A program made the translations under genes and the position numbers. Of a stretch of DNA of 64,000 nucleotides, positions 23,017-55,016 are shown piece by piece. The DNA lies in NCBI GenBank assembly GCA_964437755.1, contig CAYTIA010000004.1, positions 11,687 through 75,686 of the forward strand. Direction: 5' to 3'. A model generated the notes under the pieces. That model was not told where the DNA came from. It did no database searches and saw nothing but the letters and a program-made list of their open reading frames with translations. Within the stretch, counting starts at the first letter, position 1; every line of letters begins with the position of its first letter. This DNA comes from an uncultured Pseudomonadales bacterium. Its GTDB lineage: Bacteria > Patescibacteriota > Microgenomatia > UBA1400 > PJMF01.

Positions 23017-23814
23017 ATGAAATCATCAGCCAATAATCCTCAGTCAGGTCAGGTGGGAGTAGTTATACTTTTAATGATGGCAGTTGTCTTTACTGTAGCC
23101 ATCAGTTTAAGTCAGCGTACCCTTCAGCAACAAGATTCTGCAACTACTCAAGATGAATCAATTCGTGTTTTTAATGCAGCTGAAAGTGGAGTAGAGAGTG
23201 CTTTATTTGACATCTCTGAGCATGAGCAGCTTGGCTCACAGCTAGGCACCGGAGGAGATTTTGAGTTTGGGGATTCAAATGTATCTTATTCAATCAGTGA
23301 TTCTCCTCAATTTGAGATGTTTGTTTTAACTGGCAACACCGTTGAAATTCCACTCAACAATCCAACCGAAGGAGATGTTGTAGAAATTAGCTGGAAGCAC
23401 TCTGAATCAGTGCTTAACTGTAGCACTCAAAATCCTCCTGCATTAATTGTGAGCGTACTTAATCTTAATAATGCTAAACACTATGCATACGATCCTTGTC
23501 CAATTGCCAGAGGAACAAACTTCTACGAAGTAGATAATTTCTGTGGTCCATGTGAATATCAGTTTGAGATTGACGTTCCTGTTAGCGACGACGATCGTTT
23601 ATTAAGAATCAAACCAATTTATGACAGCACGAACATTCTTGTCACCAGCTCAAATGCAAATATTATTTCATTAGCACAATACGACGTTGCCTCCACAGCT
23701 TTTAACACGGGAGATGATATTGCTCGAACTATTGAGGTAAAACGCTCCATTCCTGGATCGTATAGCTTTATGGACCATACCCTAGTTAGTGGCAGTAGTC
23801 TAACAAAAAACTAA
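23017..23814 (+). CDS. PilX-N-domain type IV pilus assembly/minor pilin-like protein
   Basis: 265 aa. N-terminal hydrophobic segment plus a PilX_N-like pattern (GVVILLMMAVVFTVAISLSQRTL...AAESGVESAL). Immediately upstream of pilMNO. Confidence 0.5.
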   Translation: MKSSANNPQSGQVGVVILLMMAVVFTVAISLSQRTLQQQDSATTQDESIRVFNAAESGVESALFDISEHEQLGSQLGTGGDFEFGDSNVSYSISDSPQFEMFVLTGNTVEIPLNNPTEGDVVEISWKHSESVLNCSTQNPPALIVSVLNLNNAKHYAYDPCPIARGTNFYEVDNFCGPCEYQFEIDVPVSDDDRLLRIKPIYDSTNILVTSSNANIISLAQYDVASTAFNTGDDIARTIEVKRSIPGSYSFMDHTLVSGSSLTKN

Positions 23815-23855
23815 TTCAAAAAAAACATTAATAACATCAATCATCAATCTAAAAT

Positions 23856-24869
23856 ATGCCTGCCACAGCCATTGATATCGGTAGCTACTCACTTAAAGCT
23901 ATTGTAGCAAAACCCGGACAAAAACCAGTAGTTTCAAGGATTGCCCAACAAATTAATACTTGTGGATTTCCTTACCCGAAAGATGAAGCTCAGGCTGAAA
24001 AGATTCTCAAAGAGGTTGACCAGCTGTTTCATGATCACAAACTGCCAAGCACCGATGTATATTTAGGTCTTCCAGAGGAAGTTGTCGCAACCAAAATGAT
24101 TTATCTGCCTCCGCTTTCTGATGCCGAGCTAGCTTCAGCTATCGATTGGCAAGCTGAGCAACATATTCCAATTCCCTTAAATCAACTCTCACTTGAATAC
24201 CAGGTAATTTACCGACCTCCAAAAAACGCTAAAGATCAACCTATGAGAGTTTTGCTCGTGGGAACTCGTAAGGCAATAGTTGAACTATACGTTGATATTT
24301 TTTATTCTCTTGGCATTCAGCCAAAGATCATGGAAACACAACTTTTTTCTATCATAAGAGCCATGAATTTTGAAGCTAACGACCCCACCACCTTAATAGT
24401 TCACATTGGTGCCGAGAATACACAAATCGCTGTTATTCACCAAACCGAAGTTTTATTGGCTACCAACAGAAAAGGTGGGGGAGCAATCTTAACTAAAGCT
24501 ATTCAGCAATCAGTCTCAAACTGTACCCCTGAACAAGCCGAGGAGTACAAACGAAGTTGTGGCTTGTTACAAGAACAACTTCAAGGAAAAATTGCCCAAA
24601 TTCTTTTTCCAACAATCGATCCTTTAGTTCAAGAAATTGTCAAAACCATGAAGTTCTTCAACAATGAACAACCTCAGACTCCAATCGCTAGAATTGTTTT
24701 AACAGGGGGCACCTCTCAACTTCCAGGCTTGGTTAGTTATTTTGCTCAAGCTACTGGAATAGAGGTTTTGTTAGCCGCTCCATTTGAAGGAGCTGATGGT
24801 GAAAAACCTGAGAATGGCCAACAAGAGTTTATCACTTGTATAGGAGCACTTATGAGGAAAAAGGAGTAA
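23856..24869 (+). CDS. pilM: type IV pilus assembly protein PilM (actin-like ATPase fold)
   Basis: 337 aa. IDIGSYSLKAIV N-terminus and an actin/FtsA-like fold. First gene of the pilM-pilN-pilO order. Confidence 0.75.
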   Translation: MPATAIDIGSYSLKAIVAKPGQKPVVSRIAQQINTCGFPYPKDEAQAEKILKEVDQLFHDHKLPSTDVYLGLPEEVVATKMIYLPPLSDAELASAIDWQAEQHIPIPLNQLSLEYQVIYRPPKNAKDQPMRVLLVGTRKAIVELYVDIFYSLGIQPKIMETQLFSIIRAMNFEANDPTTLIVHIGAENTQIAVIHQTEVLLATNRKGGGAILTKAIQQSVSNCTPEQAEEYKRSCGLLQEQLQGKIAQILFPTIDPLVQEIVKTMKFFNNEQPQTPIARIVLTGGTSQLPGLVSYFAQATGIEVLLAAPFEGADGEKPENGQQEFITCIGALMRKKE

Positions 24870-24882
24870 TAATCACCAATAA

Positions 24883-25458
24883 ATGATTGAGATAAACTTT
24901 CTTTCTCAGCAAAATACAAAGCTCACCGCTCAACAAAAAAAAGATCGGTTGTTTTTTAGATACTCACTAATCATTTGTATTATCTGTTTAATTATTTTGG
25001 TTATCACTTCTGGAATAAATTTTTATCTAGGCTATCGTTTAAAAAAAGTTCAGGCTCAAGTAACATCAGCAAAACAACAGATTGACTCTGATAGATCTCT
25101 TGAAGCAAACTATCTCTTTTTTGTAAACAAATTAACTATCATTCGAGAACTTTTTGACCAAAGAGCAGAAAAGCAAATTGCCATTGGCTTCTTCACCGAT
25201 CTTTTCGGTCCTGATATTACTATCAGCGGAATAAACTACAACATGGAAGAAGGCATTCTTTCTCTTAAAGTTACCAGTCCTCAGGTATTCGTTTTAGAAC
25301 ACGCCTTCGAAGTCTTAGAAAACCAAGAAGTAAAAGATCTATTTGCATCTTTAACAAAAACAGACTTAACTCGTCGATCAACAGGCGAGTATGAATTTTT
25401 ATTGACAGTATCTTTTTCTGATGATTCGGAGCTAATTAATGTTGAGGAGGAGTATTAA
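24883..25458 (+). CDS. pilN: type IV pilus assembly protein PilN
   Basis: 191 aa bitopic protein with one transmembrane helix and a coiled-coil. Position is conserved after pilM. Confidence 0.6.
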   Translation: MIEINFLSQQNTKLTAQQKKDRLFFRYSLIICIICLIILVITSGINFYLGYRLKKVQAQVTSAKQQIDSDRSLEANYLFFVNKLTIIRELFDQRAEKQIAIGFFTDLFGPDITISGINYNMEEGILSLKVTSPQVFVLEHAFEVLENQEVKDLFASLTKTDLTRRSTGEYEFLLTVSFSDDSELINVEEEY

Positions 25459-26270
25459 TGGCCATTGCTCAAACTAAACAAGATTTAAATATAAAACTAT
25501 TGCTCAACTCACGCAAAAACTTATTGCTTTCAATTGTGATTGCTTGGGTCTGTGTAGCCATGGTTTTTTTTGCTATTAAGCCTCAAATCGAAACAATATT
25601 TGTCGCTAATAAAAAGCTTGATCTAGAAAAAAAACAGTTCCAGAAAGTTACTTTAAAAATTAATGAGCTAAAACAGATTGAAATCTCTGATCAATTTAAA
25701 CAAAAAGAAAAAGTTGATGAAGTTTTACCTTCACACAAACCAATTCTTGAGTTACTTTACAATCTTCACCAAACAGTTCAAAGTTCACAAGTGGCAGTTA
25801 TCTCACTGCTGATTAATCCTGGATCAATCGCCAGTGGATCTGGCGAGCTTGATCTTGTGGCCAATCAGAGAAATCAGGAGGCAACCACTACCAAAAAAAG
25901 AAGATATGACAAACTAGAAATGGAGCTAGTGGTAAAAGGCGAATCAGATCAAGTTGATCAATTCTTAGAAACAATTGAAAGAATTGCTCCTTTTACATCT
26001 GTTGTAGAATTGAATATTAAGGAGTCAAAAAAGAATGTATCTGGAGAACAGGTAGCTCTATCTGAAGCCGAGATTTTACTTAATACCTATTTTTACACTC
26101 AAGTAATTTCAACTAGCATTGAGGCAACTTTACCAACAGTAGGAGAAAAAGAGTTAAGAGCCTTTAACACTATTCAACAATTTATTCCTTCGGGATATCA
26201 ACTGCCCACAGACATTACTAACGCCGATATTGAGGATTTGTTTGAAGTCACAGGGTTTAAGTTTAATTAA
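25458..26270 (+). CDS. pilO: type IV pilus assembly protein PilO
   Basis: 270 aa bitopic protein with one transmembrane helix and a coiled-coil. Start overlaps the pilN stop (TAATG). Confidence 0.55.
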   Translation: MAIAQTKQDLNIKLLLNSRKNLLLSIVIAWVCVAMVFFAIKPQIETIFVANKKLDLEKKQFQKVTLKINELKQIEISDQFKQKEKVDEVLPSHKPILELLYNLHQTVQSSQVAVISLLINPGSIASGSGELDLVANQRNQEATTTKKRRYDKLEMELVVKGESDQVDQFLETIERIAPFTSVVELNIKESKKNVSGEQVALSEAEILLNTYFYTQVISTSIEATLPTVGEKELRAFNTIQQFIPSGYQLPTDITNADIEDLFEVTGFKFN

Positions 26271-28655: not shown

Positions 28656-30875
28656 ATGAGTAATAAACAAGAGTTATTAAATCAATACCAAGCATCTGGT
28701 TTAGTAAGAGAAAGAATAGAAAGAGAACAGAAACATGATCGAGATTTAGACTACGGTGGTTTTTTAATAGTTTTGAATAATAAATTACGAATAACTGGTT
28801 TAAATACCAATCGAGAAAACCCAAGTCATGCTGAGATTCTGTCTGAGCAGCTGACAACGATCAAGAATGTTTTTGATCAGTTATATATCGCTGGGCATCT
28901 ACTGCGCCTTTCTCCAGAACAAGCCCAACTTTTTACGCAGTTTAAGTCTAACGCTGAACAGTTAAGCTATATTATTACTGCTATTAGTCCAGAAGACTTA
29001 AATCATCGCAATCTTTCGGTTTTTGCTAACATGCTAAAACCAACAATGTTTGCTGATTACGATCAGATTCTAAGAGTCTCAGAAATCGGTCAAATTCAAG
29101 ATCCCAGAGAAAGACGACAGGCTATTACTCAACTAATGAGTGATCTAGGCATTGAGCGAGCTAGCATCAAAAAACTTTCTATTTTTTTTGAAACACAACC
29201 AACTTTGGCACAGGTTAGAGAACAGGTCGCCAAACAGCAGTGGCTAAAAAGATTATTCTGGAAATCAGCCTCAACCCTTGGTTTATTACTATTGATTTCA
29301 GGCTGTGTGGCAACAACAACAGAAACAACCCCGCCACCAGGAACACCTGTATCAGAAGTTACTCCTGAGCCAACTAATACTCCAGACGTTGTTATAACTC
29401 CAACTGCTGCTCCAACCATTGTTACACCTCCAGAACAAGGTGGCTTAATTACCCCAGACCAAGAGGCTGAAACGGAGAGGATAATTGCTCAATTTATTCT
29501 TAAACAACAAGCTCGCCAACTAATTCCAGGTATAAAATTACTCGGAATAGACGAGTGGGTTAGTGCTCCGACTCAACCAGAAGATAGCGGTTATTATCCC
29601 TTTGCTTGGAAAAGAATAGGAGACTCAATTGCATTAGAAGAGATTGGCACTCATAAAGATAACTCTAGACACTATATATTTTTTGATTACAAAAATAACA
29701 GAATAGCTTTAGTTAAAGCTGATGCAAACACTTATGTTACTGTTGATCCTAATGGCAACTGGGTTGTTCTTGATGCAGATAACCAACCTGCTCAAGAAAT
29801 TATATGGCAAGAAGTAAGTCAAGAACAAAATCAAAATCCAGAAAAACCAATAAGTGAAATCTACGTAGCAAAAGACAGATTATATAATGAGATATCCATA
29901 GAGTTACTTCAATCTTTTGGTTTTGAGAGTTGGGAAAAAGTTGGAGAAGAACAAGCAGCGTGGCTAAAATCTATTTTGGCTGGAACAGATTTGAACGGAT
30001 TACAGATAGAGATACAATCAGCCATTAATAATGGAACATTTTACGATGCTGATGGCAACATAAGCGTAGAATGGAAAAATCGAGGACTGGAGCTAATGAT
30101 GGGAGTAATGAAAGACAAGTTTAAAGCAGAGTTAGACACATTAACAGATCCAGAAGCAGAAGGAGTAGACTATCCAAGATTATTGGAGACAGTGATTACT
30201 ATAAATGGCAAAACCATCCCCATTAGCCTACACCATGGTTCTGCTTTGTATAATTTATACAGAGATAAAAGTGATTGGGATTATACTACATCTGTACCAG
30301 GTTTAACTTCAACATATCTCAATCCAGATTTTCAAACAGGAGTATCCACTATATTCGAACAATTTTTTGTAGATCGAGAACTAGATATTAAAGCCGGTTT
30401 TGCTGAAAGCTCGTTTGTCGTTAGCGATGGAAAAATAGTTAATGTTGGAGAAGTTACCGATGTAAAAAGAGTTGGAGTAGAGAATATAGATAAAATCGAG
30501 TTTTTCAGACTACATGAGCAAGAACTTTGGGTATTGGAATATATGCAAAGAGATATTACTCCCTATGCTTTAAATCCTCATTACGATGGAGATGCGGCTA
30601 CTCCATTTATTGATTTCATTTGGTTTATAAGAAACAAAACATTGACCTTTGTGCATGTTCAACCAGGAAACATAGATAAGGAGGGAGAGGCTTGGATATT
30701 GTATGCAGTTTTCAGAGACTCTCTTGCACAAGCTATGGCAAATTTATCATTTGCTCTAAGAGCTGAATCACTCGAATCAAGAGTTGCAACCAATGAATAT
30801 TTAGACTTTTATATTGGTCTAAAGGGTCAAGTTAGAAAAGAGATAGATGCAATTAAAGCAAAAGAAACTCAATAA
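28656..30875 (+). CDS. large bitopic membrane/surface protein: cytoplasmic N-domain, transmembrane helix with lipobox-like LISGC, Pro/Thr linker, and an extracellular domain of about 480 aa
   Basis: 739 aa. Transmembrane helix STLGLLLLISGC is followed by TTTETTPPPGTPVSEVTPEPTNTP...AAPTIVTPPEQGG. I recognise no family. Confidence 0.6.
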   Translation: MSNKQELLNQYQASGLVRERIEREQKHDRDLDYGGFLIVLNNKLRITGLNTNRENPSHAEILSEQLTTIKNVFDQLYIAGHLLRLSPEQAQLFTQFKSNAEQLSYIITAISPEDLNHRNLSVFANMLKPTMFADYDQILRVSEIGQIQDPRERRQAITQLMSDLGIERASIKKLSIFFETQPTLAQVREQVAKQQWLKRLFWKSASTLGLLLLISGCVATTTETTPPPGTPVSEVTPEPTNTPDVVITPTAAPTIVTPPEQGGLITPDQEAETERIIAQFILKQQARQLIPGIKLLGIDEWVSAPTQPEDSGYYPFAWKRIGDSIALEEIGTHKDNSRHYIFFDYKNNRIALVKADANTYVTVDPNGNWVVLDADNQPAQEIIWQEVSQEQNQNPEKPISEIYVAKDRLYNEISIELLQSFGFESWEKVGEEQAAWLKSILAGTDLNGLQIEIQSAINNGTFYDADGNISVEWKNRGLELMMGVMKDKFKAELDTLTDPEAEGVDYPRLLETVITINGKTIPISLHHGSALYNLYRDKSDWDYTTSVPGLTSTYLNPDFQTGVSTIFEQFFVDRELDIKAGFAESSFVVSDGKIVNVGEVTDVKRVGVENIDKIEFFRLHEQELWVLEYMQRDITPYALNPHYDGDAATPFIDFIWFIRNKTLTFVHVQPGNIDKEGEAWILYAVFRDSLAQAMANLSFALRAESLESRVATNEYLDFYIGLKGQVRKEIDAIKAKETQ

Positions 30876-30998: not shown

Positions 30999-33900
30999 AT
31001 GAATATCCTTAGACATAAAAATTCTAAAAAAATCTTCGTAGTCTCTTTGTTATTAATGTTGTTTTTCCTAGGGTGGTCTTTGGGTAAAAACAAAATTAGA
31101 GATAAATATTCAACTAATTCAGAGTTATCTTCTACAAACAGCACAACTTGGATACTTGAATCAGAAATAGACAACTTGCACTGCTATCAGGCAAATTGTA
31201 TTAACCTAGATTTAATAGAGCAGCTATTGCTTGATTTGGGCTATGATCAAAAAAACCCAACATTTAAGATGTTGGGAGGATCGAAATTAATAAAACCATC
31301 ACATATAAAGGTTAGTTTCATAGATATAAACAAAGTCAGCACAGAAGTTGTTGAAAGCCTGGAATATGTAATGACAGAAGAGAATAAAATATATTCAGGA
31401 ATAGCAATGACAGAAGACGATGACCAAGTAGAGGTAAAACTGTATTTAGATACAATAAAAGCAAGTGAATATTTAACAGATGAATACGACTATAACAAAG
31501 CTTTCGAACTGCCGTTCTTACAATTTCTAATTAATGCCAACTATACAGACACAGAGACCAACTTAGGAAAAGTAGCAGATAGACTTAATCAAATACATAA
31601 AAAATATTTTACCAACAAACAAGAAAAGTTGTTTAATCTCGAATTCAAAGAAGAGACAAGCTGGTTAAATCTAAAAAAAATAATAAGCAAGTTAATACAA
31701 CCTGTACAAGCAGCTTGTGATGGAATGTTAACTTGCGGAACTCAAAATGTTTATCCTCAATGCGAGGATGGAAGTTATTGTAGGTCAGATCAAGTGGGTT
31801 TAGAGTGCGGATGCAAAGTTCCAAAAGTAGACGGAGAGTGTCCAGAAGGTCAAGAAGCCTATTGTCGCGTTGAAGAAGATTGCACCCCAAATGGTAATTT
31901 TGAACCCTGTTCTTGGTCTGGAACAGAAAGTGCTTGCAATGCTAAACAACATTGTGGAGCTTGCCCGATAAGTGGAAGTGGTTGTTCTTGGTCTGGGAGT
32001 CCACCACCCCCAACTCTTCCCCCTGGACCAACTCTTCCGCCAGGAGTACCAACTCCGACTGATTATCAACCACCTCCGAGTCAATGCCCAGGAGTATGTT
32101 GCTGGGGCAGTTGCTGGGGCGAAACTTTATCCCCAAACACTTGCGACTCTCCCCAAAACTGTTGTTCAGCATGCCAACCAGCTTGGCCATCACAAGGTAT
32201 AGTTAGAGTTTGGGTATACTATGATTCAAATAAAAACTATATGCACGATGAGGGTGATCAATCCCTGCCTTCAGAAATCACAAATGGTGATGCTAGAGTA
32301 CAGCTTCATTTTCCTCAGCATAATGGAACAAATACGCACTACAAAACTATTCAAAATTCATTGGGTGGATGGGGAGCAATAGCAAGCCTAAGCAATTGTG
32401 TTGGCAACTGGGATAATTTTGGAGGGTGTGGAAGTGAAAACGAAGTTTGTTGCAGCCCACCAGGACCAATCACATTTTTTAGAACTTGCTGGGGAGTATG
32501 CAACCCAGAGGGAAGCGGGCACTCTTTTTATGACGGTTGGGGTGCAGGAGGAGGTTTGACAGCCGCTGATGTAATATGGGCACCATATTTATTCTGGAAT
32601 TATTATAATGCTAGCAAAATGGCTTCATTTGACTGGGGAGGATATGTTGGACCAAGTGGAGCACAAAATGCAACAGCACAAATTAGTATCATTGATCTTC
32701 CGCCAGAATATGAAGTAAATCTCATAAGATTTTCAAAACCCATTCCTTCAGAAAGTGAGATGGCTAATTTAGATATATACAAAAGTGCCAATACCCTTTA
32801 CCACACTAACTCTATTAGCAAAACCATCGAAACCGTTGGAGGGTGGCACGTAACAACGGGATTATTTGTTATCGGGATTTCTCCAAAAAATGATCCTCCA
32901 GAAGCTGTTTATTCTCAAATAGTTTCAATTGATGATGACACTAGCGTTACTGATCAAATGTGCTTAGCTAGTAACTCAGCTAAAAAAATAGAAATTGCTT
33001 CTTTTTTTAGTGACCCAGATGAGCCAATTTCTCAAAATTTAGTAAAAAATGGCAGTTTTGAGAATGGTACTGCTAACTGGACGCTTCAAAACATTAATGG
33101 CAACACCGACGGCTCTGCTTCTATTGTTACTGGAACTAATGCCTATTACGGTCCCTCAGCTCTTAGAACCAATGGCGGTGCTTCAACTGGTTACTTCAGA
33201 GCCATCCAAGCTGTTAACCTTGAACCAAATACCAACTACTCATTTACCGCTACCTACAAAAGTGGTACTACAGCCACCAATCCAAGATTGGGGGCTCATG
33301 TTTACTGCCATCCTTCAGATGGAAGTCCTGCAATTGGACAACCAGCCATGAGTATCACCTTTAGTCAAATTTATTCTGAATTCAAAACCGTTGCTAATTC
33401 ATTCACTACCACTACCTGTGCAGGACAATTTACTATCTATATTTTTTCAGATGCAGATCCCAACTCATGGATGACTCTTGATGGGGTGTTTTTACGCCAA
33501 GGCTCTCAAGTAGCTGAAATCTTTTCAGATATCAGCCGCTTTCAGATTAATTTAGAAAAACAAAACTTTCCAACAAATACTGAATTTAGTGGAGGTGACT
33601 GGCCCTTAAGATTGCAGGCTGTTCGTCTAAATAATATTAACATGAACAAATACCGCGCCTTTAATGGCACTGGAACTTCTGACGACACAATTAGTTATAG
33701 TTATGATTTTACAACCAATAGGTGGTATTTACCCTCAGATTCATTCATAGATCCAGATGTTTGTGTACCATGGTGCTGGCCACCGCCCGCATTAATACTT
33801 TCATCAAATCCTGCCACTGGAGCTTGGAATACTTATTTTCAATATGCTGGTGCCAACACCATTTTCGCTCGCTGGGTAGTTGAAGTTAATAGCTCGTTAC

Positions 33901-35351
33901 TTAGTGAGGGTCAATATCACGTCACAGCCTGGGTAGATGACTTTCTAGCTCAACAAGATGAACGCGCATCTGCTGGTGACCGCACTAAGATGACTTTAAC
34001 TTCGGGAGCCGCAAGTTATACTTGGCAAAGGTTCGGTTCTCTTGATGTAACCAGTCCCTTACTGACTGTTAACTTTATGGAGTCTGAGAACGACACTCCC
34101 TCTGGAGATTACTGTCCTTACAGAACTGGCACTGCTGTTACTCTGAATGGAGCTGCTGTAGGAGTAAGGCCATCTGGCGGTAGCACTTTCCAAAATTCAT
34201 CAATCAATAATATTTCAACTATAAACATCACTCCCAATACCTGTGCAGATACTTATGATGTTAGGCTAACTCTAAATCCAAGCGACGGTTATGTTTGTAA
34301 CTGCCAAATTGGAGCCAATCCCTATGAATGTGTTTATTATGATGTGCCAGCTACCTATTTGGGTAATGATCCAATTAATTTTTATCTCTTGGAGGTTGAC
34401 CTCACTAATAATGCTTGGTTTCAGAGCGTTGGTGGACAAATAACGGCTCTTGGCAACATTAGATCAAACGTTCCTTATAATGCCGCCACATCAGGTCCTT
34501 GTAATCAAGGAAATAACTGTTGGCCAGCCTTGATTACTTGGCTACCATGGAGTGGGGGAGCAGACTATGTTAATACCCCAGGTTTTCCTTTTGCTAGAAC
34601 AGGTGGCTCAATTAATACCCATAGTGATGGTGGAACCGCTTATGTTCATACCACCGATCAACATACTCAAAGCAATGATGGCCACGCCTCTGATAACTCA
34701 GCCATTCCTACAGAGTATAACTATCAGTACTTCTACAATAGATTTGGCTTTGAATATGACACAGCAGAAAATCAGTTGGCTAGCGGAGCTCAGCCGAGTC
34801 TGAGCTCTGGTTTAAATATTCGATTTGCTTCTAGCGATCTAACTATTTCTGAACCTTGGCACATATCTGCTGGTGAACAACTAATTGTGTTTGTTGATGG
34901 CAATCTTACTCTTAGCGATACCACTGGAGATAGAAGGTTAATTAGAGCCGATGCTGGAAGTTATCTTGCTTTTATTGTATCTGGTAATATTTCTATCAAC
35001 TCAAATGTTGGCTATACGATTCCAAATACAAATCCAATTGTTTTTGCTCGTCCTGGAACCGTTAGCCCTAATGTAGAGGGCATTTATCTTGCTAATGGCA
35101 CATTGACAGTTGCCAGCAATGGCAATGCCTCTTTGCCTGACAAGAAGTTCATCGGAGCTGGCACTTTTGTGGGTTGGAGTGGAGTTAATTTAGCCAGATC
35201 TTTTGCTGATGGAGTTATTGGCATGGCTTGGCACAATTTTAATCCTACCGAAACATTTATCTATCGACCAGATTTCTTACTCAACACACCATCTGTAATG
35301 AAAGAACCAATCCATGAATGGCGAGAGGTAGCTCCAAGAACCAGCAACTAA
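30999..35351 (+). CDS. giant (1450 aa) secreted/anchored Cys-rich surface protein with a CBM4/9-like carbohydrate-binding module and a beta-helix-like C-terminal region
   Basis: N-terminal signal anchor (IFVVSLLLMLFFLGWSLG). Cys-dense segments (CDGMLTCGTQNVYPQCEDGSYC...CGACPISGSGCSWSGS; CPGVCCWGSCWG...CCSACQ). Proline-rich linker PPPPTLPPGPTLPPGVPTPTD. CBM_4_9-like NGSFENGTANWTLQNING...YFRAIQAVNLEPNTNYSF. Confidence 0.7.
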   Translation: MNILRHKNSKKIFVVSLLLMLFFLGWSLGKNKIRDKYSTNSELSSTNSTTWILESEIDNLHCYQANCINLDLIEQLLLDLGYDQKNPTFKMLGGSKLIKPSHIKVSFIDINKVSTEVVESLEYVMTEENKIYSGIAMTEDDDQVEVKLYLDTIKASEYLTDEYDYNKAFELPFLQFLINANYTDTETNLGKVADRLNQIHKKYFTNKQEKLFNLEFKEETSWLNLKKIISKLIQPVQAACDGMLTCGTQNVYPQCEDGSYCRSDQVGLECGCKVPKVDGECPEGQEAYCRVEEDCTPNGNFEPCSWSGTESACNAKQHCGACPISGSGCSWSGSPPPPTLPPGPTLPPGVPTPTDYQPPPSQCPGVCCWGSCWGETLSPNTCDSPQNCCSACQPAWPSQGIVRVWVYYDSNKNYMHDEGDQSLPSEITNGDARVQLHFPQHNGTNTHYKTIQNSLGGWGAIASLSNCVGNWDNFGGCGSENEVCCSPPGPITFFRTCWGVCNPEGSGHSFYDGWGAGGGLTAADVIWAPYLFWNYYNASKMASFDWGGYVGPSGAQNATAQISIIDLPPEYEVNLIRFSKPIPSESEMANLDIYKSANTLYHTNSISKTIETVGGWHVTTGLFVIGISPKNDPPEAVYSQIVSIDDDTSVTDQMCLASNSAKKIEIASFFSDPDEPISQNLVKNGSFENGTANWTLQNINGNTDGSASIVTGTNAYYGPSALRTNGGASTGYFRAIQAVNLEPNTNYSFTATYKSGTTATNPRLGAHVYCHPSDGSPAIGQPAMSITFSQIYSEFKTVANSFTTTTCAGQFTIYIFSDADPNSWMTLDGVFLRQGSQVAEIFSDISRFQINLEKQNFPTNTEFSGGDWPLRLQAVRLNNINMNKYRAFNGTGTSDDTISYSYDFTTNRWYLPSDSFIDPDVCVPWCWPPPALILSSNPATGAWNTYFQYAGANTIFARWVVEVNSSLLSEGQYHVTAWVDDFLAQQDERASAGDRTKMTLTSGAASYTWQRFGSLDVTSPLLTVNFMESENDTPSGDYCPYRTGTAVTLNGAAVGVRPSGGSTFQNSSINNISTINITPNTCADTYDVRLTLNPSDGYVCNCQIGANPYECVYYDVPATYLGNDPINFYLLEVDLTNNAWFQSVGGQITALGNIRSNVPYNAATSGPCNQGNNCWPALITWLPWSGGADYVNTPGFPFARTGGSINTHSDGGTAYVHTTDQHTQSNDGHASDNSAIPTEYNYQYFYNRFGFEYDTAENQLASGAQPSLSSGLNIRFASSDLTISEPWHISAGEQLIVFVDGNLTLSDTTGDRRLIRADAGSYLAFIVSGNISINSNVGYTIPNTNPIVFARPGTVSPNVEGIYLANGTLTVASNGNASLPDKKFIGAGTFVGWSGVNLARSFADGVIGMAWHNFNPTETFIYRPDFLLNTPSVMKEPIHEWREVAPRTSN

Positions 35352-35360
35352 TATCAAAAC

Positions 35361-35888
35361 ATGAAAATAAGTACTTCTCCGGCTCATAGTAGTAAAACCG
35401 GTTTTACTCTAATTGAAGTTTTAGTAATTTCTGGATTAACCGTGATAATTATGCTTAGCACAGTGAGCTTATTCATGACTTTTTTAATCAGCCAAGCCAG
35501 AATCACTCAAAAGCAACAGTTAAAAAATGCTGGGAACAGTGCATTAAAACAGATGACACAAGTTTTAAGAGAAGCAAAATCAATTAATCCCTGTAACCCT
35601 GCTTCGTCAAACAGTATTATGTTTACCGACATCAACAATAGAACTGGCAGTTATCAAAGAAGTATTTTTGATAACGGTAATTATGGAATTAACTATTCCA
35701 CTCAAGATGGTAGTAATTTTATTACTTCACAAGATATGAATATCATCTCTTTTACTTCTAACTGCTACACTAGTCAAGAATCTCAACTAGTTAAGATTAC
35801 TTTTGTTTTACAAAATCCAAGAATTCAAGGCCCCTCAAACGAACCCCTCAATCAAGAGTTTGGTGTAAATATTCAGTTAAGAAATTAA
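35361..35888 (+). CDS. prepilin-type (class III signal) pseudopilin/minor pilin
   Basis: 175 aa. Prepilin peptidase site KTG|FTLIEVLVISGLTVII. Lies 9 nt after the giant surface-protein gene on the same strand. Confidence 0.7.
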   Translation: MKISTSPAHSSKTGFTLIEVLVISGLTVIIMLSTVSLFMTFLISQARITQKQQLKNAGNSALKQMTQVLREAKSINPCNPASSNSIMFTDINNRTGSYQRSIFDNGNYGINYSTQDGSNFITSQDMNIISFTSNCYTSQESQLVKITFVLQNPRIQGPSNEPLNQEFGVNIQLRN

Positions 35889-35905: not shown

Positions 35906-36622
35906 CTACATCGCTTCTTGTCCCCCGCACTCCCAGTCACAGGTGATCTCATTGCATACCCAAGGATATCCTCCAATGCAATAACCACCCGGAGGAAGAC
36001 CTACACAACAAACAGATTCTGGTGTTGGAAAAAGGGTAATTGTTGGAACAGAAGTTGGGGGAACAGGGGTAGCTGTTGGCCCAACAGGCACAAACACCTC
36101 TGAATCATGGAGATTCTTTGCCAATTTAAAACTAGAATTTACAGAAACCTCATCGCCGACATCATTTAACCAGCTAATAATAATTTCAACACTAATTTCA
36201 TTAGCATCAACTACCACGGAAGCAACTTGTTTTATTTGTGCAGGAATATCTCCTGAAACCGCAACAAAAGGGCAATTTTCTCCCGTGGGCAATCCAGAAA
36301 ATACATTGTTGTTAACACCTGTTGAAAAGCTGTTAACACCATTAAGACAGTAAGTTCTTGTTTCTAACACCGAGCTTAATCCAGACCAACCCAAGATACT
36401 TCTTTCTTGACGAAAAAAATCTATTCTTGACTGAGCTAACTCTGAAGAATAATTTCTAACTCTAGCTTGAGAGTCAGACTTCATTGTATAAGTCATTAGA
36501 GTTGCCAAACCTACCATTACTAAAGCCAGAACTGTTCCTGAAACCAAAATCTCTAAAAGACTAAAGCCACTATCTTTGTTCAAGTATTCTTTTTCAATAA
36601 TTTTTTTCATTAATATTCCCAA
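35906..36622 (-). CDS. prepilin-type minor pilin with a C-terminal Pro/Thr linker and 6-Cys module
   Basis: 238 aa. DSG|FSLLEILVSG class III signal. C-terminus is PVGPTATPVPPTSVPTITLFPTPESVCCVGLPPGGYCIGGYPWVCNEITCDWECGGQEAM. Confidence 0.7.
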   Translation of the reverse strand: MGILMKKIIEKEYLNKDSGFSLLEILVSGTVLALVMVGLATLMTYTMKSDSQARVRNYSSELAQSRIDFFRQERSILGWSGLSSVLETRTYCLNGVNSFSTGVNNNVFSGLPTGENCPFVAVSGDIPAQIKQVASVVVDANEISVEIIISWLNDVGDEVSVNSSFKLAKNLHDSEVFVPVGPTATPVPPTSVPTITLFPTPESVCCVGLPPGGYCIGGYPWVCNEITCDWECGGQEAM

Positions 36623-36625
36623 TTG

Positions 36626-37288
36626 TTAATATACAGAAGACTCAATACATTCCCAAACACAAGTACTTGGATTACACCACCAATTCCAAGGACAAGCATC
36701 ATCAGGAATACCATGACAACATTGAGTAATTATATCTGTTGGTGCTGGAATAAAAGAAGTTGGAGATGGAGTCATTTGTTCGACTATTATCTCAATCTCT
36801 CCAGATCTCACTACTCCAGATCGATGAATCGAAATTGTCATTTCACCAAAGGCGCTCTCTAAAGATACTCCATTAGTTTCCGGTGCATCAGCAGGATCTA
36901 AATCATCATCAATTATCCCCGTTACTGCTCTCGAATAAAGAGTATTGGAACTTAAAAAACTTACGCCGCTTGATACTTTTAAAGTTCTTAATTCTTCAGG
37001 GCTTCCATTACTACCATCTAAACACCTGGGTTTGATCTCGATCACTCCCGTTCCATTGTCATTATAAAAATCAATCTGATAGGCTTCTAAACTAGTACAA
37101 CCTCTCATTTTGCCACTACGAGCAGAAATTTGGGCTGACTCAACTGCTTCTCGAACCAGCTCAGCTGCTTGTGTTAACTTTTGTCGATCATTAAAATTGA
37201 TATACCCAGAAATTCCCATTCCAAGTAAAAGTAATAAAATTGCTATTGATACCAATAATTCTATTAAAGAAAAACCTTTGTGATTCAT
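36626..37288 (-). CDS. prepilin-type minor pilin with a C-terminal Pro/Thr linker and 6-Cys module (paralogous C-terminus)
   Basis: 220 aa. KG|FSLIELLVSIAILLLLLG class III signal. C-terminus is TPSPTSFIPAPTDIITQCCHGIPDDACPWNWWCNPSTCVWECIESSVY. Confidence 0.7.
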   Translation of the reverse strand: MNHKGFSLIELLVSIAILLLLLGMGISGYINFNDRQKLTQAAELVREAVESAQISARSGKMRGCTSLEAYQIDFYNDNGTGVIEIKPRCLDGSNGSPEELRTLKVSSGVSFLSSNTLYSRAVTGIIDDDLDPADAPETNGVSLESAFGEMTISIHRSGVVRSGEIEIIVEQMTPSPTSFIPAPTDIITQCCHGIPDDACPWNWWCNPSTCVWECIESSVY

Positions 37289-37292
37289 TTTT

Positions 37293-37682
37293 TTATGGAT
37301 TGCTCAAAGTATAGGGATTAATTGCATTTGGATCTTCTAAGTTCACGCTAAGAGTAAAAGTTGAGGCAGTAGAGGAGTAGACATAAACATTGCTCCCTGG
37401 ATCTCTAAAACGTTCCACACCATCGCTTAAATAACCCTGAGTATTAAGATAGGTAACCACTCCATCAAAATTATAGCCTGTTGGATAGCTACCCACATCT
37501 GAACGATACAGCACCAGAGCTTGACGAACAGTTTCCAGATCGGCCTTACGCTTTGAATCTCGGCTTTTAATCGAGGCCGTTCTATAACTTATCACTCCTA
37601 TAGTAGTTAAGACAACAATGATCGTGGCAACTACTAGCAATTCAATCAGAGAGAAGCCATTTTTTGGTAATTTCTTTTTCAT
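37293..37682 (-). CDS. type IV pilin-like protein
   Basis: 129 aa. NG|FSLIELLVVATIIVVL class III signal. Confidence 0.7.
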   Translation of the reverse strand: MKKKLPKNGFSLIELLVVATIIVVLTTIGVISYRTASIKSRDSKRKADLETVRQALVLYRSDVGSYPTGYNFDGVVTYLNTQGYLSDGVERFRDPGSNVYVYSSTASTFTLSVNLEDPNAINPYTLSNP

Positions 37683-37688
37683 AATAAA

Positions 37689-38105
37689 CTATTGTAAGTT
37701 GGTAAGACAGTAATAACCACCACTTGATGCAAAGCCACAAGAATTATTTGATGAGTTACCATCGGTCCCATCAAGATCAGCGCAAACACAGTAACCGCCT
37801 GGAGCCCTTGCAACGCAAGTATATTCTGCACCAGCAGGAGCACCAGATGGAAAATAGGTGTTTGCTTTCATTGCTTCACAGCTTGAAGCAGTACTATAAG
37901 AACCATTATCAGCATAATACTGCTCAAAGCCATCTTGCATGGCTTTGACGTTGGCTCTACGCCTAGCATCTCGTGCCTTTCGTTGAGCAGAAGAGTAAGC
38001 CACCACACCAATTACCACCAAGATTGCAATAATGGCTATCACAACCAATAATTCCAAAAGAGAGAAGCCTGAAGACTTTTTTTTATTTTGTCGAAAAATT
38101 TTCAT
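37689..38105 (-). CDS. type IV pilin (paralog A)
   Basis: 138 aa. SSG|FSLLELLVVIAIIAIL. Shares ...AMQDGFEQYY... and C-terminal YTC..A.GGYCVCA with the next gene. Confidence 0.75.
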   Translation of the reverse strand: MKIFRQNKKKSSGFSLLELLVVIAIIAILVVIGVVAYSSAQRKARDARRRANVKAMQDGFEQYYADNGSYSTASSCEAMKANTYFPSGAPAGAEYTCVARAPGGYCVCADLDGTDGNSSNNSCGFASSGGYYCLTNLQ

Positions 38106-38121
38106 ATTTACAAATAAGTAA

Positions 38122-38565
38122 TTAAATTGGGTTGTATAAACTTGTCAAACAAAAATACTCTTGATCAGTAGCAGAACTATTCAGGTTTTCACATGAGGTA
38201 CCATCAGCATTGCCGTTGATAGTTTCTGTACGAGCGCAGACACAATAACCATAGGCTGCTGGCGTAGTGCAGGTATAGCTCATACCCGGCTTTGGATCGG
38301 TGGGAAACCCTCCGGGAAAATTGTCTTCATCAGCCATCATCGCAGCGCAGTTATAATTTCCATTTTCAAGATAATATTGCTCAAAACCTTGTTGAGCTGC
38401 CTTGATATCAGATTTTCTTCTTGAATCTCTACCTTTTTTTTGAGAAGAAGTTAATGAGGCAGTAAGTAAACCTAATAATATGGCAATTATCGAGATTACT
38501 ACCAATAGCTCTAGTAAAGTAAAGCCTTCATTTTTTTTATTGGACAGTTTTGTATGACAAATCAT
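38122..38565 (-). CDS. type IV pilin (paralog B)
   Basis: 147 aa. NEG|FTLLELLVVISIIAIL. Shares ...AAQQGFEQYY... and C-terminal YTC..AAYGYCVCA. Confidence 0.75.
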   Translation of the reverse strand: MICHTKLSNKKNEGFTLLELLVVISIIAILLGLLTASLTSSQKKGRDSRRKSDIKAAQQGFEQYYLENGNYNCAAMMADEDNFPGGFPTDPKPGMSYTCTTPAAYGYCVCARTETINGNADGTSCENLNSSATDQEYFCLTSLYNPI

Positions 38566-38578: not shown

Positions 38579-39574
38579 TTAATTAACCTTGACTATAACC
38601 AAGTTTTGCGGACTGTCATAGGACTCAATTTTACCCTCTTTAATTACTTTAAGTTTAGCATGATATTCACAACTAGCTGCTAAACATTGATATTGATGTT
38701 CAACCTGACCTCTCATGCCAACAAACTGTTCTTTTTTACCATCTCCAAAATCTAGCTCAACTTCAATTGACTCTTCCTCAATTTCATTTGAAAAAATGGT
38801 TTCAACTGAAGCAATGAACCTTTCCACAGGATCATCACTATCTAAATATCCTGTAAAACTAGTTTCAAGGCTCGGAGAAACAACGAAAGAAAAAACAACA
38901 GCTTGATTCTTTGAAACTTCTAAAATTCGATCAATTTTGTTGTAATATGGCTGAGTGCTAAAACTTAAAATAATTGGTCTATCCACACAAAACTCATTGC
39001 AATCTTGAGGACAATCAAGAGCCTCAAATTCCTGTAAACCCTGCCCAAGCTGCATGCTGGTATCACAACAAGAATAACCATAAGAAACACACTCGCTTGG
39101 AGGACCAGCAACCCCTGAAAAAACTGCGGGTTTACTAGAAGTAACTATTTCATCATCAAGAACTGTAACTGAACCAGTTCTTTTTAAAACAGTAAAATTC
39201 ATTCCTAATTCTTGACCCCAGCGAACACCAGACTTACCAGTTTGAACCATGACAAAAGGAGGTAGATCTTCTGTAATAACTTCAATTGGGGAATGCTCTC
39301 GCTGATTACAGACTACTTCCACCACATAAGAATTTGAGTCAGTAAATCTTAATTGAGTCACATGTACTATGCCTTTTTCATCCCGATCACTACCTTTAGA
39401 GGCACACTCTGTGGCATAGCTCTGAGTATGCTGAATATCCCTAACTTGTTTTAAGCTCTGCTTAACTTTTGAAGTTGTCATTGCCAGCATAACTTCACGG
39501 GTAATCAAAAATCCCAATCCCAAGACTAAAGCAAGAATAATTATTGAGGTTAATAAAGCTTTTATGACTCTCAT
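38579..39574 (-). CDS. pilus-cluster membrane-anchored Cys-rich protein of unknown function
   Basis: N-terminal transmembrane anchor (ALLTSIIILALVLGLGFLI), then an extracellular domain with CVSYGYSCCDTSM...DCPQDCNEFC. The ORF-track start (GTG at 39613) overlaps pilD by 43 nt. An internal ATG at 39574 overlaps the pilD TGA as ATGA, and I prefer that start (331 aa). Confidence 0.5.
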   Translation of the reverse strand: MRVIKALLTSIIILALVLGLGFLITREVMLAMTTSKVKQSLKQVRDIQHTQSYATECASKGSDRDEKGIVHVTQLRFTDSNSYVVEVVCNQREHSPIEVITEDLPPFVMVQTGKSGVRWGQELGMNFTVLKRTGSVTVLDDEIVTSSKPAVFSGVAGPPSECVSYGYSCCDTSMQLGQGLQEFEALDCPQDCNEFCVDRPIILSFSTQPYYNKIDRILEVSKNQAVVFSFVVSPSLETSFTGYLDSDDPVERFIASVETIFSNEIEEESIEVELDFGDGKKEQFVGMRGQVEHQYQCLAASCEYHAKLKVIKEGKIESYDSPQNLVIVKVN

Positions 39575-40464
39575 AATAGTTGCCAGTAAGCTTGCCAAAG
39601 ATCTGCTCCCCACGCTAGAGCAATTAAGGAACCTAACACTAAAAATGGACCGAATGAAATCATCTGACCAGTTTTAGCCCTGCGTGTTATTAATAAAATT
39701 ATGCCCCAAACTCCACCAATAATAAAGGTACAAAAAATTCCCACTGTTGCTAGTTTATAACCCAAAACCATTGCCAGAGGAAAAACTAGTTTTATGTCAC
39801 CCCAACCAAGACCATATTTTTTTAAGAAAAGCAAAGGAAGATAACGAAGCATCAAAAAAAATAATAATAAAAGTGTGGCAACAGCTAGATCATTGAAAAA
39901 AGATGCTTGGATATTAAACAGTTGTTCGCTCACAGCTTTCATCACTGCTACTAATCCCACTAACAAAACCAACTCATCAGGAATAATCATGTATTTTTGA
40001 TCAAAAAGTAATATCAACCAAAGAAAAATAATGAAGATAAGCAAAAAGAGAAAACTAAAAAGAGGATTGTTGAAATAAGCGGGTGTTGAGAGATGTAAAT
40101 AACCAACAAACACAAACAAAATACCTGTTAATAATTCTACCAAAGGATAATCCAAGCCAATCTTTATTTTACAAAAACGACATTTACCTCCTAACAACAG
40201 ATAAGAAAGCAAAGGAATGTTGTCATACCAGTGGATGTTTTTACCGCAACTCTGGCAATGTGATCGACCAGTTACCCAACTATTATTATTTAGGGATTTT
40301 TTTTGCTTTTTAACCAATACATCTTCGCTGTACTTTTCTTCAGATCGGTCAACAATCACCTTAAAAAAACTTCCAAAGAATAAACCAAACACAAATAAAA
40401 CTAAGTAAAAGAACAAAGGATAGTCGTAAAAAAATACAAAAGAATTAATTAGGGATTGAAACAT
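39571..40464 (-). CDS. pilD: prepilin peptidase (A24 family) PilD
   Basis: 297 aa. N-terminal CxxC...CxxC zinc motif (CQSCGKN...CRFCKIKI), polytopic membrane topology, catalytic Asp regions (LFDQKYMIIPD; GWGDIKL). Confidence 0.85.
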   Translation of the reverse strand: MFQSLINSFVFFYDYPLFFYLVLFVFGLFFGSFFKVIVDRSEEKYSEDVLVKKQKKSLNNNSWVTGRSHCQSCGKNIHWYDNIPLLSYLLLGGKCRFCKIKIGLDYPLVELLTGILFVFVGYLHLSTPAYFNNPLFSFLFLLIFIIFLWLILLFDQKYMIIPDELVLLVGLVAVMKAVSEQLFNIQASFFNDLAVATLLLLFFLMLRYLPLLFLKKYGLGWGDIKLVFPLAMVLGYKLATVGIFCTFIIGGVWGIILLITRRAKTGQMISFGPFLVLGSLIALAWGADLWQAYWQLL

Positions 40465-40560: not shown

Positions 40561-41322
40561 TTATGGTAAGCAAACCATAGCTCCTGGGACATCTTTTAAA
40601 CCATCAAAAGTTTCTGTTGGATTGCAGATAAAGTTGGCAGCAGCTTCTTCTATATCAACTGGCAACCCGACTCCATAAGTATAATCTTCTCCTGGCTCAG
40701 CAGGGTCAGCGCATCTTTCTAGAGCTTGAGTGTCGAAGGCTCCAGATTGTGGCACAAAACAGACATATGTACTAGCACCAGGTAGACCATTATTATAAAG
40801 ATATAACGTTCTTCCAGCTCCGCTAGCAACTCTTCTAGTAAAACTTTCTTTCAGTTCTTGAGCACCCGCACAGTTTGCCACCCCCTCGCTACCGGTTGAT
40901 AGTCGAGTTAATATTGGACAGCCAGTGGCTGGAGGATCTTCCTGGGCAAATACATCACCAACCAACCAACCAAACATTCCTCCACCATTTAAGACAATAT
41001 TTGGAGTTGGTTCTTCAGGAACACCGCCCACAGCAGGAGTTGTCTCTGTTACCGGAACAGGATATCCGTCAGCATCCATAATGGCAATATTAGGATCATT
41101 GGCATCAATCTGCCAAGGGAAATAGCCCTGAAATGCATTGTATCGATCAATAGCACTCAACAACTGCTCTGCATCCGATTGCCTACCTGTGTCTCTACCT
41201 CTATTAATTTGCTCGATAGGATTAATTGCTGAAAGAACTGCAACTGCCAAAATACCAAGAATGGTAATGACGATCAACAGCTCGATCATGGTAAAACCTA
41301 ATTGACGATGGAGTCTTTTCAT
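40561..41322 (-). CDS. type IV major pilin candidate
   Basis: 253 aa. QLG|FTMIELLIVITILGILAVAV class III signal. It has its own strong terminator and elevated GC, which is consistent with high expression. It sits directly after pilC. Confidence 0.75.
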   Translation of the reverse strand: MKRLHRQLGFTMIELLIVITILGILAVAVLSAINPIEQINRGRDTGRQSDAEQLLSAIDRYNAFQGYFPWQIDANDPNIAIMDADGYPVPVTETTPAVGGVPEEPTPNIVLNGGGMFGWLVGDVFAQEDPPATGCPILTRLSTGSEGVANCAGAQELKESFTRRVASGAGRTLYLYNNGLPGASTYVCFVPQSGAFDTQALERCADPAEPGEDYTYGVGLPVDIEEAAANFICNPTETFDGLKDVPGAMVCLP

Positions 41323-41453: not shown

Positions 41454-42656
41454 TTAAAATTGCGATGACAAACTATAGATTGGCATCATTATAGAGACAA
41501 CCATAAAACCAACTCCTGCTCCCAAGACAATCATAATTAACGGTTCAATTGCAGTTGTTAAGTTTTTAACCGCGTACTCACTTTCCTTTTCATAATACTC
41601 TGAAAGTTTAAAAAGAATTTCATCAATTCTTCCTGTTTCTTCACCAACTTGAATCATTTGCGGTAAAAGAGAGGGGAAAACTTCTTTAATCTCGATTGCT
41701 GCTGATAAACTCATTCCACGCTCAATCTCTTTCTTGGCTTCTTTGACTGCATCGCGATAAGTGACACTTTCAAGAGCATTGCCTACGATATCTAGTGCCT
41801 CTAGCAAAGAAACACCAGCACTCAATAGTAAAGACAAAGTCCTAGCGAACTCAGTTAGGATAATCTTTGTTCGCAAAACTCCATAAATCGGAATCTTATT
41901 AAGAAACTTGTCAAAGCTGTGTTCGCCCGCTTCAGTTTTAACCCAAGTTCTAAAAATCAAAAAAAATATAATTCCCACTATAAACATTGCCCACCAATAT
42001 TTTGCCATCAACCCTGAAACGCCCATTAAAATCCTGGTTGGTAGCGGTAAATCAGCCCCAAAATCTCGATACATTTCGGTTAACTGGGGCAGAACAAAAA
42101 CCATCATGATAAAACCAACTATCAACATTGCAAACAGCACAATGATGGGGTAGATCATTGCTCCTTTGGTTTTGGCAGCAAAATCTTTTTGTTTTTCAAG
42201 CGTCAGCGCTAGACGATCTAAAACTGAGTCAAGCACACCACCTATCTCTCCAGCTCGAACCAATTGAATATAAACCCTTGAAAAAACATCGGGGTGTTCT
42301 TTAAGAGCTTCAGCAAAACTCTTTCCACTTTCAACATCTTTAAGAATTTTTATCACCACCGCTGCCATTGCTGGCTTGGCTTGCTCTTGAAGTATAACTA
42401 AAGATGTTGCTAGTGGCAAGCCAGCGCCAATCATAGTTGACAACTGGCGAGTAAAGTTCACCAAATCGTCATCCTTGACCCCCATTAGTTTACTCTGGAT
42501 AAAACCAAAAGATCCCTCAGCAATAGGTCTAATGTTGATAATTAAAAGTGAGCGAGAAATTAAGGCGTTGGCAGCTTGATTGGTATTTTTGGCTTCTACC
42601 TTTCCCTTAATGGTTTCACCGTGTTCATTCTTTGCAGTGTATTTATAAATTGGCAT
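41454..42656 (-). CDS. pilC: type IV pilus platform protein PilC (GspF family)
   Basis: 400 aa. Two GspF repeats with three transmembrane helices. Confidence 0.85.
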   Translation of the reverse strand: MPIYKYTAKNEHGETIKGKVEAKNTNQAANALISRSLLIINIRPIAEGSFGFIQSKLMGVKDDDLVNFTRQLSTMIGAGLPLATSLVILQEQAKPAMAAVVIKILKDVESGKSFAEALKEHPDVFSRVYIQLVRAGEIGGVLDSVLDRLALTLEKQKDFAAKTKGAMIYPIIVLFAMLIVGFIMMVFVLPQLTEMYRDFGADLPLPTRILMGVSGLMAKYWWAMFIVGIIFFLIFRTWVKTEAGEHSFDKFLNKIPIYGVLRTKIILTEFARTLSLLLSAGVSLLEALDIVGNALESVTYRDAVKEAKKEIERGMSLSAAIEIKEVFPSLLPQMIQVGEETGRIDEILFKLSEYYEKESEYAVKNLTTAIEPLIMIVLGAGVGFMVVSIMMPIYSLSSQF

Positions 42657-52438: not shown

Positions 52439-52512
52439 TGGACTCAGCGGGGCTCGAACCCGCGACCTCTTACATGCCATGCAAGCGCTCTAGCCAACTG
52501 AGCTATGAGCCC
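52439..52512 (-). tRNA. tRNA-Ala (anticodon GGC)
   Basis: The minus-strand cloverleaf has a G3:U70 identity pair in the acceptor stem (GGGCTCA/TGAGTCC), anticodon loop ATGGCAT, and T-arm GCGGG TTCGAGC CCCGC. It is 74 nt and CCA is not encoded. Confidence 0.85.
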
Positions 52513-55011: not shown

Positions 55012-55016
55012 TTGTC

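Follow-up and report, generated by a model that had tools for sequence, protein, structure and literature searches.

Here we describe two adjacent type IV prepilin genes, called A and B below, and the small cysteine-rich module with which the product of each ends. They lie in a stretch of 64,000 nucleotides of the contig CAYTIA010000004.1, referred to throughout as the window, from a low-GC, uncultured bacterium of anaerobic digesters. Both genes are read on the minus strand, B ahead of A, and both are predicted to encode the same succession of parts: a class III signal, a pilin body, a linker of 20-26 amino acids (aa) rich in proline and threonine, a module with six cysteines and, after the module, a tail of six residues (Table 1). 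An earlier note, made from the DNA letters alone, had drawn attention to these neighbouring prepilin-like open reading frames (ORFs) of 238 and 220 aa, and both are present as it described, with their class III signals, pilin-sized bodies, Pro/Thr linkers and common C-terminal six-cysteine module; the linker and module strings that it quoted agree letter for letter, and its module length of 30 aa has to be corrected to 25-28 aa. The open frame of A spans 35906..36622 on the minus strand (238 aa) and reaches a TTG at 36622; the gene callers and the orthologues (P0001) take the ATG at 36610 as the start, which gives 234 aa.

By their sequence both proteins are type IV prepilins. Each shows a short polar leader that ends in glycine, a hydrophobic residue at +1, a glutamate at +5 and a hydrophobic alpha-1 helix, as expected of class III signals, and the two signals read on as ...KDSG/FSLLEILV in A and MNHKG/FSLIELLV in B, where the slash follows the glycine at position -1. 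The Pfam model N_methyl scores 30.8 bits on B, above its cut-off of 21.2, and 19.8 bits on A, slightly under it; TIGR02532 adds 26.5 bits on B (cut-off 16.3). The pilin bodies hold a cysteine pair of their own, separate from the cysteines of the module, and the module itself lies outside the pilin fold, because orthologous pilins stop cleanly just before the linker. A and B are, as far as sequence can tell, modular pilins as Raynaud et al. (2021) define them, in which a self-sufficient pilin module is extended at its C-terminus by a linker and then by a further module.

The modules of A and B are, to judge from their profiles, homologous. When the A-type and B-type module profiles are compared with hhalign, they match with a probability of 97.1% (E 5.9e-11); the alignment spans 27 columns and has 48% identity. 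Run against the 857 six-frame fragments of the window, a hidden Markov model (HMM) built from B-type modules only finds the A module as its top non-self match (E 0.057), and adding P0016 as an intermediate, a B-type pilin of distant kinship whose module reads CCSLLKPPEACGGYWVCNPSLCRWEC, brings the E-value down to 2.6e-4; the HMM built from A-type modules likewise has B as its best match, though with a weak E of 1.8. In the six-frame translation of the 64 kb, a relaxed cysteine pattern and the sub-motifs CC.G.P and TC.WEC are found at two places and no others, the C-termini of the two pilins. Recent gene conversion between the modules was considered and rejected, because their similarity at the DNA level is modest. 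The earlier note had also seen a relative of the module in a cysteine- and tryptophan-rich segment, CPGVCCWGSCWG, of the neighbouring 1450-aa protein; the segment is there, but the module HMM finds no match in it and hhalign returns a probability of 0.7%, so that the kinship was discarded.

Word-indexed searches of 5.8 billion proteins returned six relatives of A and eight of B. Six cysteines, one proline and two tryptophans are invariant in 9/9 aligned modules, and a tenth variant, the A-type module of the related locus L051, keeps the same residues when inspected by eye only, outside the alignment. Across the module-bearing orthologues the cysteines are arranged as CC-x7/8-C-x5/7-C-x3/4-C-x3-C; the earlier note had let its proposal hang on this spacing, and it is conserved. 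Codon analysis gives the module a nonsynonymous change (pN) of about 0.2 against a synonymous change (pS) of 0.5-0.8, the latter being saturated, and the module must therefore be translated and under purifying selection, even though its loops evolve about twice as fast as the pilin body of A (body pN 0.11). By this measure purifying selection has preserved the module in about ten orthologues. Such data bear directly on the possibility that it has no function at all, being a low-complexity tail that arose by chance, the wrongly called end of an ORF or a remnant in decay, an idea that draws some support from the loss of the module in several close relatives. Against it stand the invariance of the key residues, a pN well below pS, the profile-profile E-value (6e-11 when rounded) and a reading frame kept across eight independent assemblies; the conservation data effectively refute it, and we give it next to no credence.

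Comparison of the syntenic loci from other assemblies suggests how the module behaves over time. The samples in which the locus or its relatives occur are anaerobic digesters, among them JGI sample 3300033178, an anaerobic digester in Wageningen (PMC10159854), and SRR8925817, from a survey of biogas plants (PMC7842101); a scan of JGI metagenomes confirmed three loci, all from digester samples. Both pilins end in the six-cysteine module in the window, in L048 and in L051. In L044 and L050 it is present on A and B has none, ending in ...GEIEGA* or ...GEIEAE*; in L049 it is present on B, and A carries on the same linker an unrelated domain of ~95 aa; in L046 this other domain is again on A, and B has no module. 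The more distant L047 has the six-cysteine module on B (its A gene is cut by the contig end), and in the outgroup L058 neither A (158 aa) nor B (169 aa) has any. The module-less B-type proteins, 163-169 aa long, terminate in GEIEGT*, GEIEGA*, GEIE* or RIE*, their stop codon standing directly after the pilin body, and at the DNA level the indel in B is clean, in frame and about 156 nt long. Since the pilin bodies of these strains are 68-86% identical, the turnover of the cassette is recent when set against the time over which the pilins themselves have diverged. Read from these alleles, the module is an optional, exchangeable cassette that is gained, lost or replaced among close strains, and the mini-domain it encodes is cargo outside the pilin fold, because the same pilins in close relatives either lack it or bear the unrelated ~95-aa domain at the end of the same linker.

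The ~95-aa domain itself (P0005 and P0006, at 10001-10885 of L046 and 10001-10870 of L049) carries the motif ISW..V.GA.YYRVYMS. It looks like an Fn3 domain by eye (ISW..V.GA.YYRVY), but no significant match appears in Pfam or NCBIfam, and no further copy was found elsewhere in the 64 kb window.

Searches for a known family or fold recovered little beyond the pilins themselves. Pfam and NCBIfam recognise on A and B the N-terminal methylation motif only and nothing at the module. In the PDB, a sequence profile of the module reaches an LDL-receptor repeat at E 4 only, which is noise, and the best matches of the module model in Foldseek searches have E 9.4 against the PDB and E 1.5 against the viral structures of BFVD. 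Among 1.84 billion cluster representatives, HMMER yielded two true matches, P0008 (66 bits) and P0016, both of them pilins, and the remaining four matches of the same scan were repeat or junk sequences. Three DNA matches to W-x-C-N-x4-C-x-W-E-C on viral contigs were dismissed, all being out of frame and interrupted by stop codons, and a scan of a genome collection with the B-family alignment, using generic N-terminal pilin patterns, returned unrelated pilins only, from Proteobacteria and others. The recurrence on pilins of related genomes for which the earlier note had suggested looking was thus found, pilins being the only true carriers among the 1.84e9 representatives, and the known domain family that it had allowed for as the contrary outcome turned up in none of Pfam, NCBIfam and PDB. 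On present evidence the six-cysteine module is an undescribed family, seen solely on the pilins of one lineage.

Several familiar cysteine-rich elements nevertheless invite comparison. The D-region of type IVa (T4a) pilins likewise has cysteines near the pilin C-terminus, but it consists of one disulfide within the globular pilin domain, whereas the six-cysteine module stands past a Pro/Thr linker and is cleanly deletable; the D-region was ruled out, since the linker separates the module from the body and the module is missing from otherwise intact orthologues. Knottins and conotoxin-type six-cysteine peptides resemble it in length (about 25-30 aa), in number of cysteines and in their small beta-hairpin. 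The order of cysteines in an inhibitor cystine knot is C-C-CC-C-C, with the connectivity I-IV, II-V, III-VI; that of the module is CC-C-C-C-C. This difference, together with fold searches that gave no structural neighbour, led us to reject membership among the knottins, and the knottin-like fold that the earlier note had imagined finds no support. In the fungal CBM1 and in hevein (CBM18) a Pro/Thr linker is followed by an aromatic-rich mini-domain of 30-45 aa that is stabilised by disulfides and sticks to polysaccharide. The design logic is similar, but the cysteine pattern differs and there is no match in sequence or fold, none of the nine modules scanned alone having a Pfam match even at E<=10, so that membership was rejected and the likeness is an analogy only.

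The predicted structure is compact. AlphaFold2 (AF2) gives the module a predicted local distance difference test score (pLDDT) of 77-81, both alone and within the full-length protein, and models a C-terminal beta-hairpin (W26-N29 / D34-C37). Four aromatic residues stand among the 19-22 residues that are not cysteine; the net charge is about -3, and basic residues number zero. Throughout the locus the number of cysteines in a mature pilin is even (6, 6, 6, 0, 8, 8 and 2), and so are the 10 of a 344-aa membrane-anchored protein and the 42 of the 1450-aa protein; these even counts in its secreted proteins suggest systematic disulfide formation outside the cytoplasm in an organism of an anoxic habitat. 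Genes for Dsb or VKOR proteins were not seen among the scanned ORFs of the window. The six invariant cysteines are most likely paired as three disulfides. Were they instead reduced, they might coordinate zinc, iron, nickel or an Fe-S cluster, or bind metal-sulfide minerals, and both the anaerobic digesters from which the samples come and the invariance of all six would suit such a chemistry; yet the module has no CxxC pair and no conserved histidine or aspartate ligand, and a vicinal CC with a C-x4-C-x3-C spacing is atypical of metal knuckles. As the even-cysteine rule holds for all secreted proteins of the locus and AF2 folds the module compactly without metal, we regard metal or thiol chemistry as quite improbable.

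A and B are the last of a series of genes that runs along the minus strand in the order pilB, pilT, pilC, a 253-aa pilin, pilD, the 344-aa cysteine-rich membrane protein, three small pilins, B and A. With the assignments collected in Table 1, the locus is a complete, retractile type IV pilus system, retractile in that it contains PilT. A secretin gene was not seen in the 64 kb window, and genes for FemAB, LytR_C and PBP1 suggest a monoderm-type wall. The bacterium may plausibly belong to the Patescibacteria/CPR. Otherwise the window carries housekeeping genes (UvrD, PheST, TyrS, RecG, GyrAB and RNase III), and it is therefore taken to be chromosomal.

Table 1. Positions of the two pilins, their parts and the neighbouring pilus genes in the window
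Feature	Position	Strand	Remarks
Pilin A gene	35906..36610	-	234 aa from ATG at 36610; predicted modular prepilin (pilin body, linker, six-cysteine module)
A class III signal and start of helix alpha-1	36551..36610	-	MKKIIEKEYLNKDSG/FSLLE; Gly at -1, Glu at +5
A Pro/Thr-rich linker	36011..36088	-	PVGPTATPVPPTSVPTITLFPTPESV; length differs among orthologues
A six-cysteine module	35927..36010	-	CCVGLPPGGYCIGGYPWVCNEITCDWEC; 28 aa; CC-x8-C-x7-C-x4-C-x3-C
Pilin B gene	36626..37288	-	220 aa; predicted modular prepilin
B class III signal	37259..37288	-	MNHKG/FSLIE
B linker	36722..36784	-	VEQMTPSPTSFIPAPTDIITQ; starts exactly at the end point of module-less orthologues (GEIEGT*)
B six-cysteine module	36647..36721	-	CCHGIPDDACPWNWWCNPSTCVWEC; 25 aa; CC-x7-C-x5-C-x4-C-x3-C
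1450-aa surface protein	30999..35351	+	CBM_4_9 domain, no pilin signal; converges on A with the 175-aa prepilin
175-aa prepilin-like protein	35361..35888	+	G/FTLIE; convergent with A, found beside A throughout the related loci
Three small prepilins (129, 138, 147 aa)	37293..38565	-	Directly upstream of B
344-aa membrane-anchored protein	38579..39613	-	10 Cys; no family match; kept in every related pilus locus
Prepilin peptidase PilD	39571..40464	-	A24_N_bact 1e-28, Peptidase_A24 5.7e-10
253-aa prepilin beside pilC	40561..41322	-	Likely major pilin, by position only
pilC	41454-42656	-	T2SSF 4.7e-64
pilT	42680-43738	-	T2SSE 1.4e-43
pilB	43786-45615	-	T2SSE 2.2e-126 and MshEN
Second pilus gene block	23017..26270	+	10 kb upstream of the main locus
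PilX_N-like protein	23017-23814	+	Second pilus block
PilM	23856-24869	+	E 2.9e-43; second pilus block
191-aa protein	within 23017..26270	+	Second pilus block
PilO/T2SSM-like protein	25458-26270	+	Second pilus block

Within this cluster, the 344-aa ORF starts at a GTG and in that reading shares 43 nt with the end of pilD; for the same strain gene callers place the start further in, which gives 339 aa in L001. Its cysteines include a cluster that reads CVSYGYSCCDTS...CPQDCNEFC.

In the 1450-aa protein the locus seems to have another hypervariable component at the cell surface. Between strains, identity is 77% over the C-terminal ~820 aa of this protein, whereas its cysteine-rich N-terminal half, with cysteine-rich knots and Pro-rich linkers, is non-homologous from one strain to another, and the length of the protein ranges from 999 to 1450 aa (relatives at L044 11281-14874, L046 11434-15678 and L048 2837-5836). 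It shares with the pilins the theme of a Pro-rich linker followed by a cysteine-rich unit, and it is a candidate for a non-pilin adhesin associated with the pilus. Directly upstream of it, at 28656-30875 on the plus strand, lies a gene whose 739-aa product has no Pfam match and contains an internal membrane segment, after which comes a long region rich in proline and threonine; proteins of other lengths occupy the same position in relatives (224 aa in L044, 840 aa in L046).

What might the module do on such a pilus? We think it slightly more probable than not that A and B are modular pilins which display a disulfide-stabilised mini-domain on the pilus, as a cassette that tunes strain-specific attachment. 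PilD of the locus would cleave the class III signal, and the alpha-1 helix and the globular body of ~150 aa would insert A and B into the filament; the Pro/Thr linker would then serve as a flexible stalk of 20-26 aa, holding outside the pilus an autonomous mini-domain of 25-28 aa that is kept together by its six cysteines. The mini-domain would probably sit at the pilus tip, a position that we infer because the A and B genes occupy the place of low-abundance priming pilins. There it could bind an external ligand, most plausibly a glycan or a cell-surface polymer of a partner cell or substrate, and the gain, loss and replacement of the cassette would tune the specificity of attachment between strains. 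Display for ligand binding is suggested by the Pro/Thr stalk, by the position of the genes among presumptive low-abundance pilins and beside the giant protein with its CBM and its strain-variable, cysteine-rich half, and by the precedents to which we come below.

Alternatively, the module might have a structural role, locking the priming or tip complex without any external ligand; it could dock onto a partner, such as the 1450-aa protein, the 175-aa pilin or the second module, or it could stabilise the tip through disulfides between molecules. In every locus the two decorated pilins adjoin each other, the 175-aa pilin and the giant protein, and cysteine-rich segments are frequent in the proteins of the locus. 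However, genomes with a module on A only, on B only or on neither speak against an obligate A-B pair or an essential role in assembly, module content shows no correlation with how the N-terminal half of the giant protein varies, and the even number of cysteines in each module fits pairing within the molecule. For these reasons we consider docking unlikely, though it is the alternative to which we give the most weight. Far less probable is an effector-like peptide, similar to a toxin or an antimicrobial, that is presented or released at the pilus tip against the envelope of a host or prey. The module is small, rich in cysteine and tryptophan, acidic and placed on the flexible stalk of a retractile pilus, and the bacteria of this habitat include parasites of methanogens; but searches of Pfam, of PDB sequences and of folds gave no likeness to a toxin family, no cleavage site or immunity gene is evident, and the module is anionic, not cationic.

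Several points weigh against display for strain-specific attachment itself. That the module forms disulfides, sits at the tip and binds a ligand, and what this ligand would be, are all steps that we infer, and in an anoxic habitat extracellular disulfides are not a given. The labels "minor pilin" and "tip" come from gene order and from weak sub-threshold matches. The PilV/GspI class of A and the FimU/GspH class of B are tentative assignments, made from sub-threshold matches to the N-terminal helix: A matches PilV (TIGR02523) at its N-terminus with E 2.7e-7 and 31.2 bits under a cut-off of 52.2, and B, again at the N-terminus only, reaches 36 bits with NF007800 (cut-off 158) and 17.9 bits with GspH (cut-off 80). 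Profile matches of the pilins in the PDB cover the alpha-1 helix only, and nothing in those searches matched past the N-terminal helix of A or B; AF2, run on the whole of A, gives a poor model with a mean pLDDT of 52, in which the pilin body has too low a confidence to be interpreted. The module alignment is shallow, with 9 sequences, and in Pfam and PDB searches the module has no likeness, in sequence or in fold, to any known carbohydrate-binding module.

Modular pilins were defined in 2021 as a pilin module with a short linker and a grafted module (Raynaud et al., PNAS; PMC8179133). More than 1,200 examples in 264 architectures were described, several of them from candidate-phyla bacteria, and in Streptococcus sanguinis PilB carries a grafted vWA module whose adhesion was shown experimentally, while PilC carries a lectin-type module (PMC8179133). 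The earlier note's statement that ordinary pilins lack this modular architecture was therefore too strong, since modular pilins are known and widespread (PMC8179133). A and B agree with them in the class III pilin module, the short linker, the grafted C-terminal module outside the pilin fold and the predicted display on the filament, probably at its tip. They differ in that the module here has 25-28 aa and six cysteines, belongs to no described family and has so far been seen on pilins only. That an extra module should be a functional domain also known outside pilus biology does not hold for it in Pfam, NCBIfam, PDB or the 1.84e9 representatives. They differ also in having paralogous copies on two adjacent pilins and a turnover of cassettes among strains. 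The vWA and lectin modules are, moreover, far larger than 25-28 aa. The PilB and PilC of S. sanguinis are reportedly treated as modular pilins by Shahin et al. in 2023, beside the work of 2021.

The minor pilins PilX1 and PilX2 of the Saccharibacteria (TM7x) bear C-terminal accessory domains, with PilX2 implicated in host binding, and the C-terminal regions of pilins diversify across that group (PMC11623550). Like A and B, which are putative minor pilins, they bear extra C-terminal domains, and TM7x is episymbiotic and monoderm-type; unlike A and B, PilX1 and PilX2 lack canonical PilD signals and have large domains, one of them a beta-jelly-roll and the other a 7-bladed propeller, whereas A and B combine a mini-domain with canonical signals. 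What is new here is the tiny six-cysteine family, its paralogous copies on two adjacent pilins and the gain, loss and replacement of the cassette among close strains.

A bolder reading goes further, namely that the module founds a new family of autonomous three-disulfide mini-domains of ~25 aa which exist only as cargo of pili and which are part of a system of exchangeable host-recognition cassettes at the tip, to which the ~95-aa domain and the hypervariable part of the giant protein would also belong. We offer it tentatively and think it, on balance, doubtful. If it were true, no functional unit known to be grafted onto a pilin would be smaller than the module, the cassette system would have a parallel in phage tail fibres, whose receptor-binding tips are exchanged, and the cassettes could decide to which partner cells each strain can attach, for example methanogens in digesters. 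Little is known of how ultrasmall or episymbiotic bacteria recognise their partners, and suspicion falls first on type IV pili (PMC11623550). As a candidate determinant of specificity the module is compact and experimentally tractable: at 25-28 residues it could be made by chemical synthesis, and natural strains supply versions with, without and with a swapped module on nearly identical pilins. More generally, the modular-pilin concept is extended to mini-domains that are invisible to domain databases, which supports the suspicion that modular pilins have been under-counted (PMC8179133), and if the module is a stable three-disulfide scaffold, it may be of interest to peptide engineers.

Elsewhere in the window, the minus strand carries, side by side, a tRNA gene (52439-52512) and a gene for a tyrosine recombinase (52877-53842; Phage_integrase E 1.5e-44), after which comes the stretch of lowest GC in the window, at 54-56 kb with a GC of 0.295; the region 52439-56100 may be an integrated element. 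A trigger factor homologue at 8813-9775 on the plus strand has 320 aa only, with matches to the N- and C-terminal domains and none to the central PPIase domain. Further along, at 9889-10566 on the same strand, a 225-aa protein matches DUF5660 (E 8.7e-20), and its gene adjoins a tRNA gene at 10674-10747.

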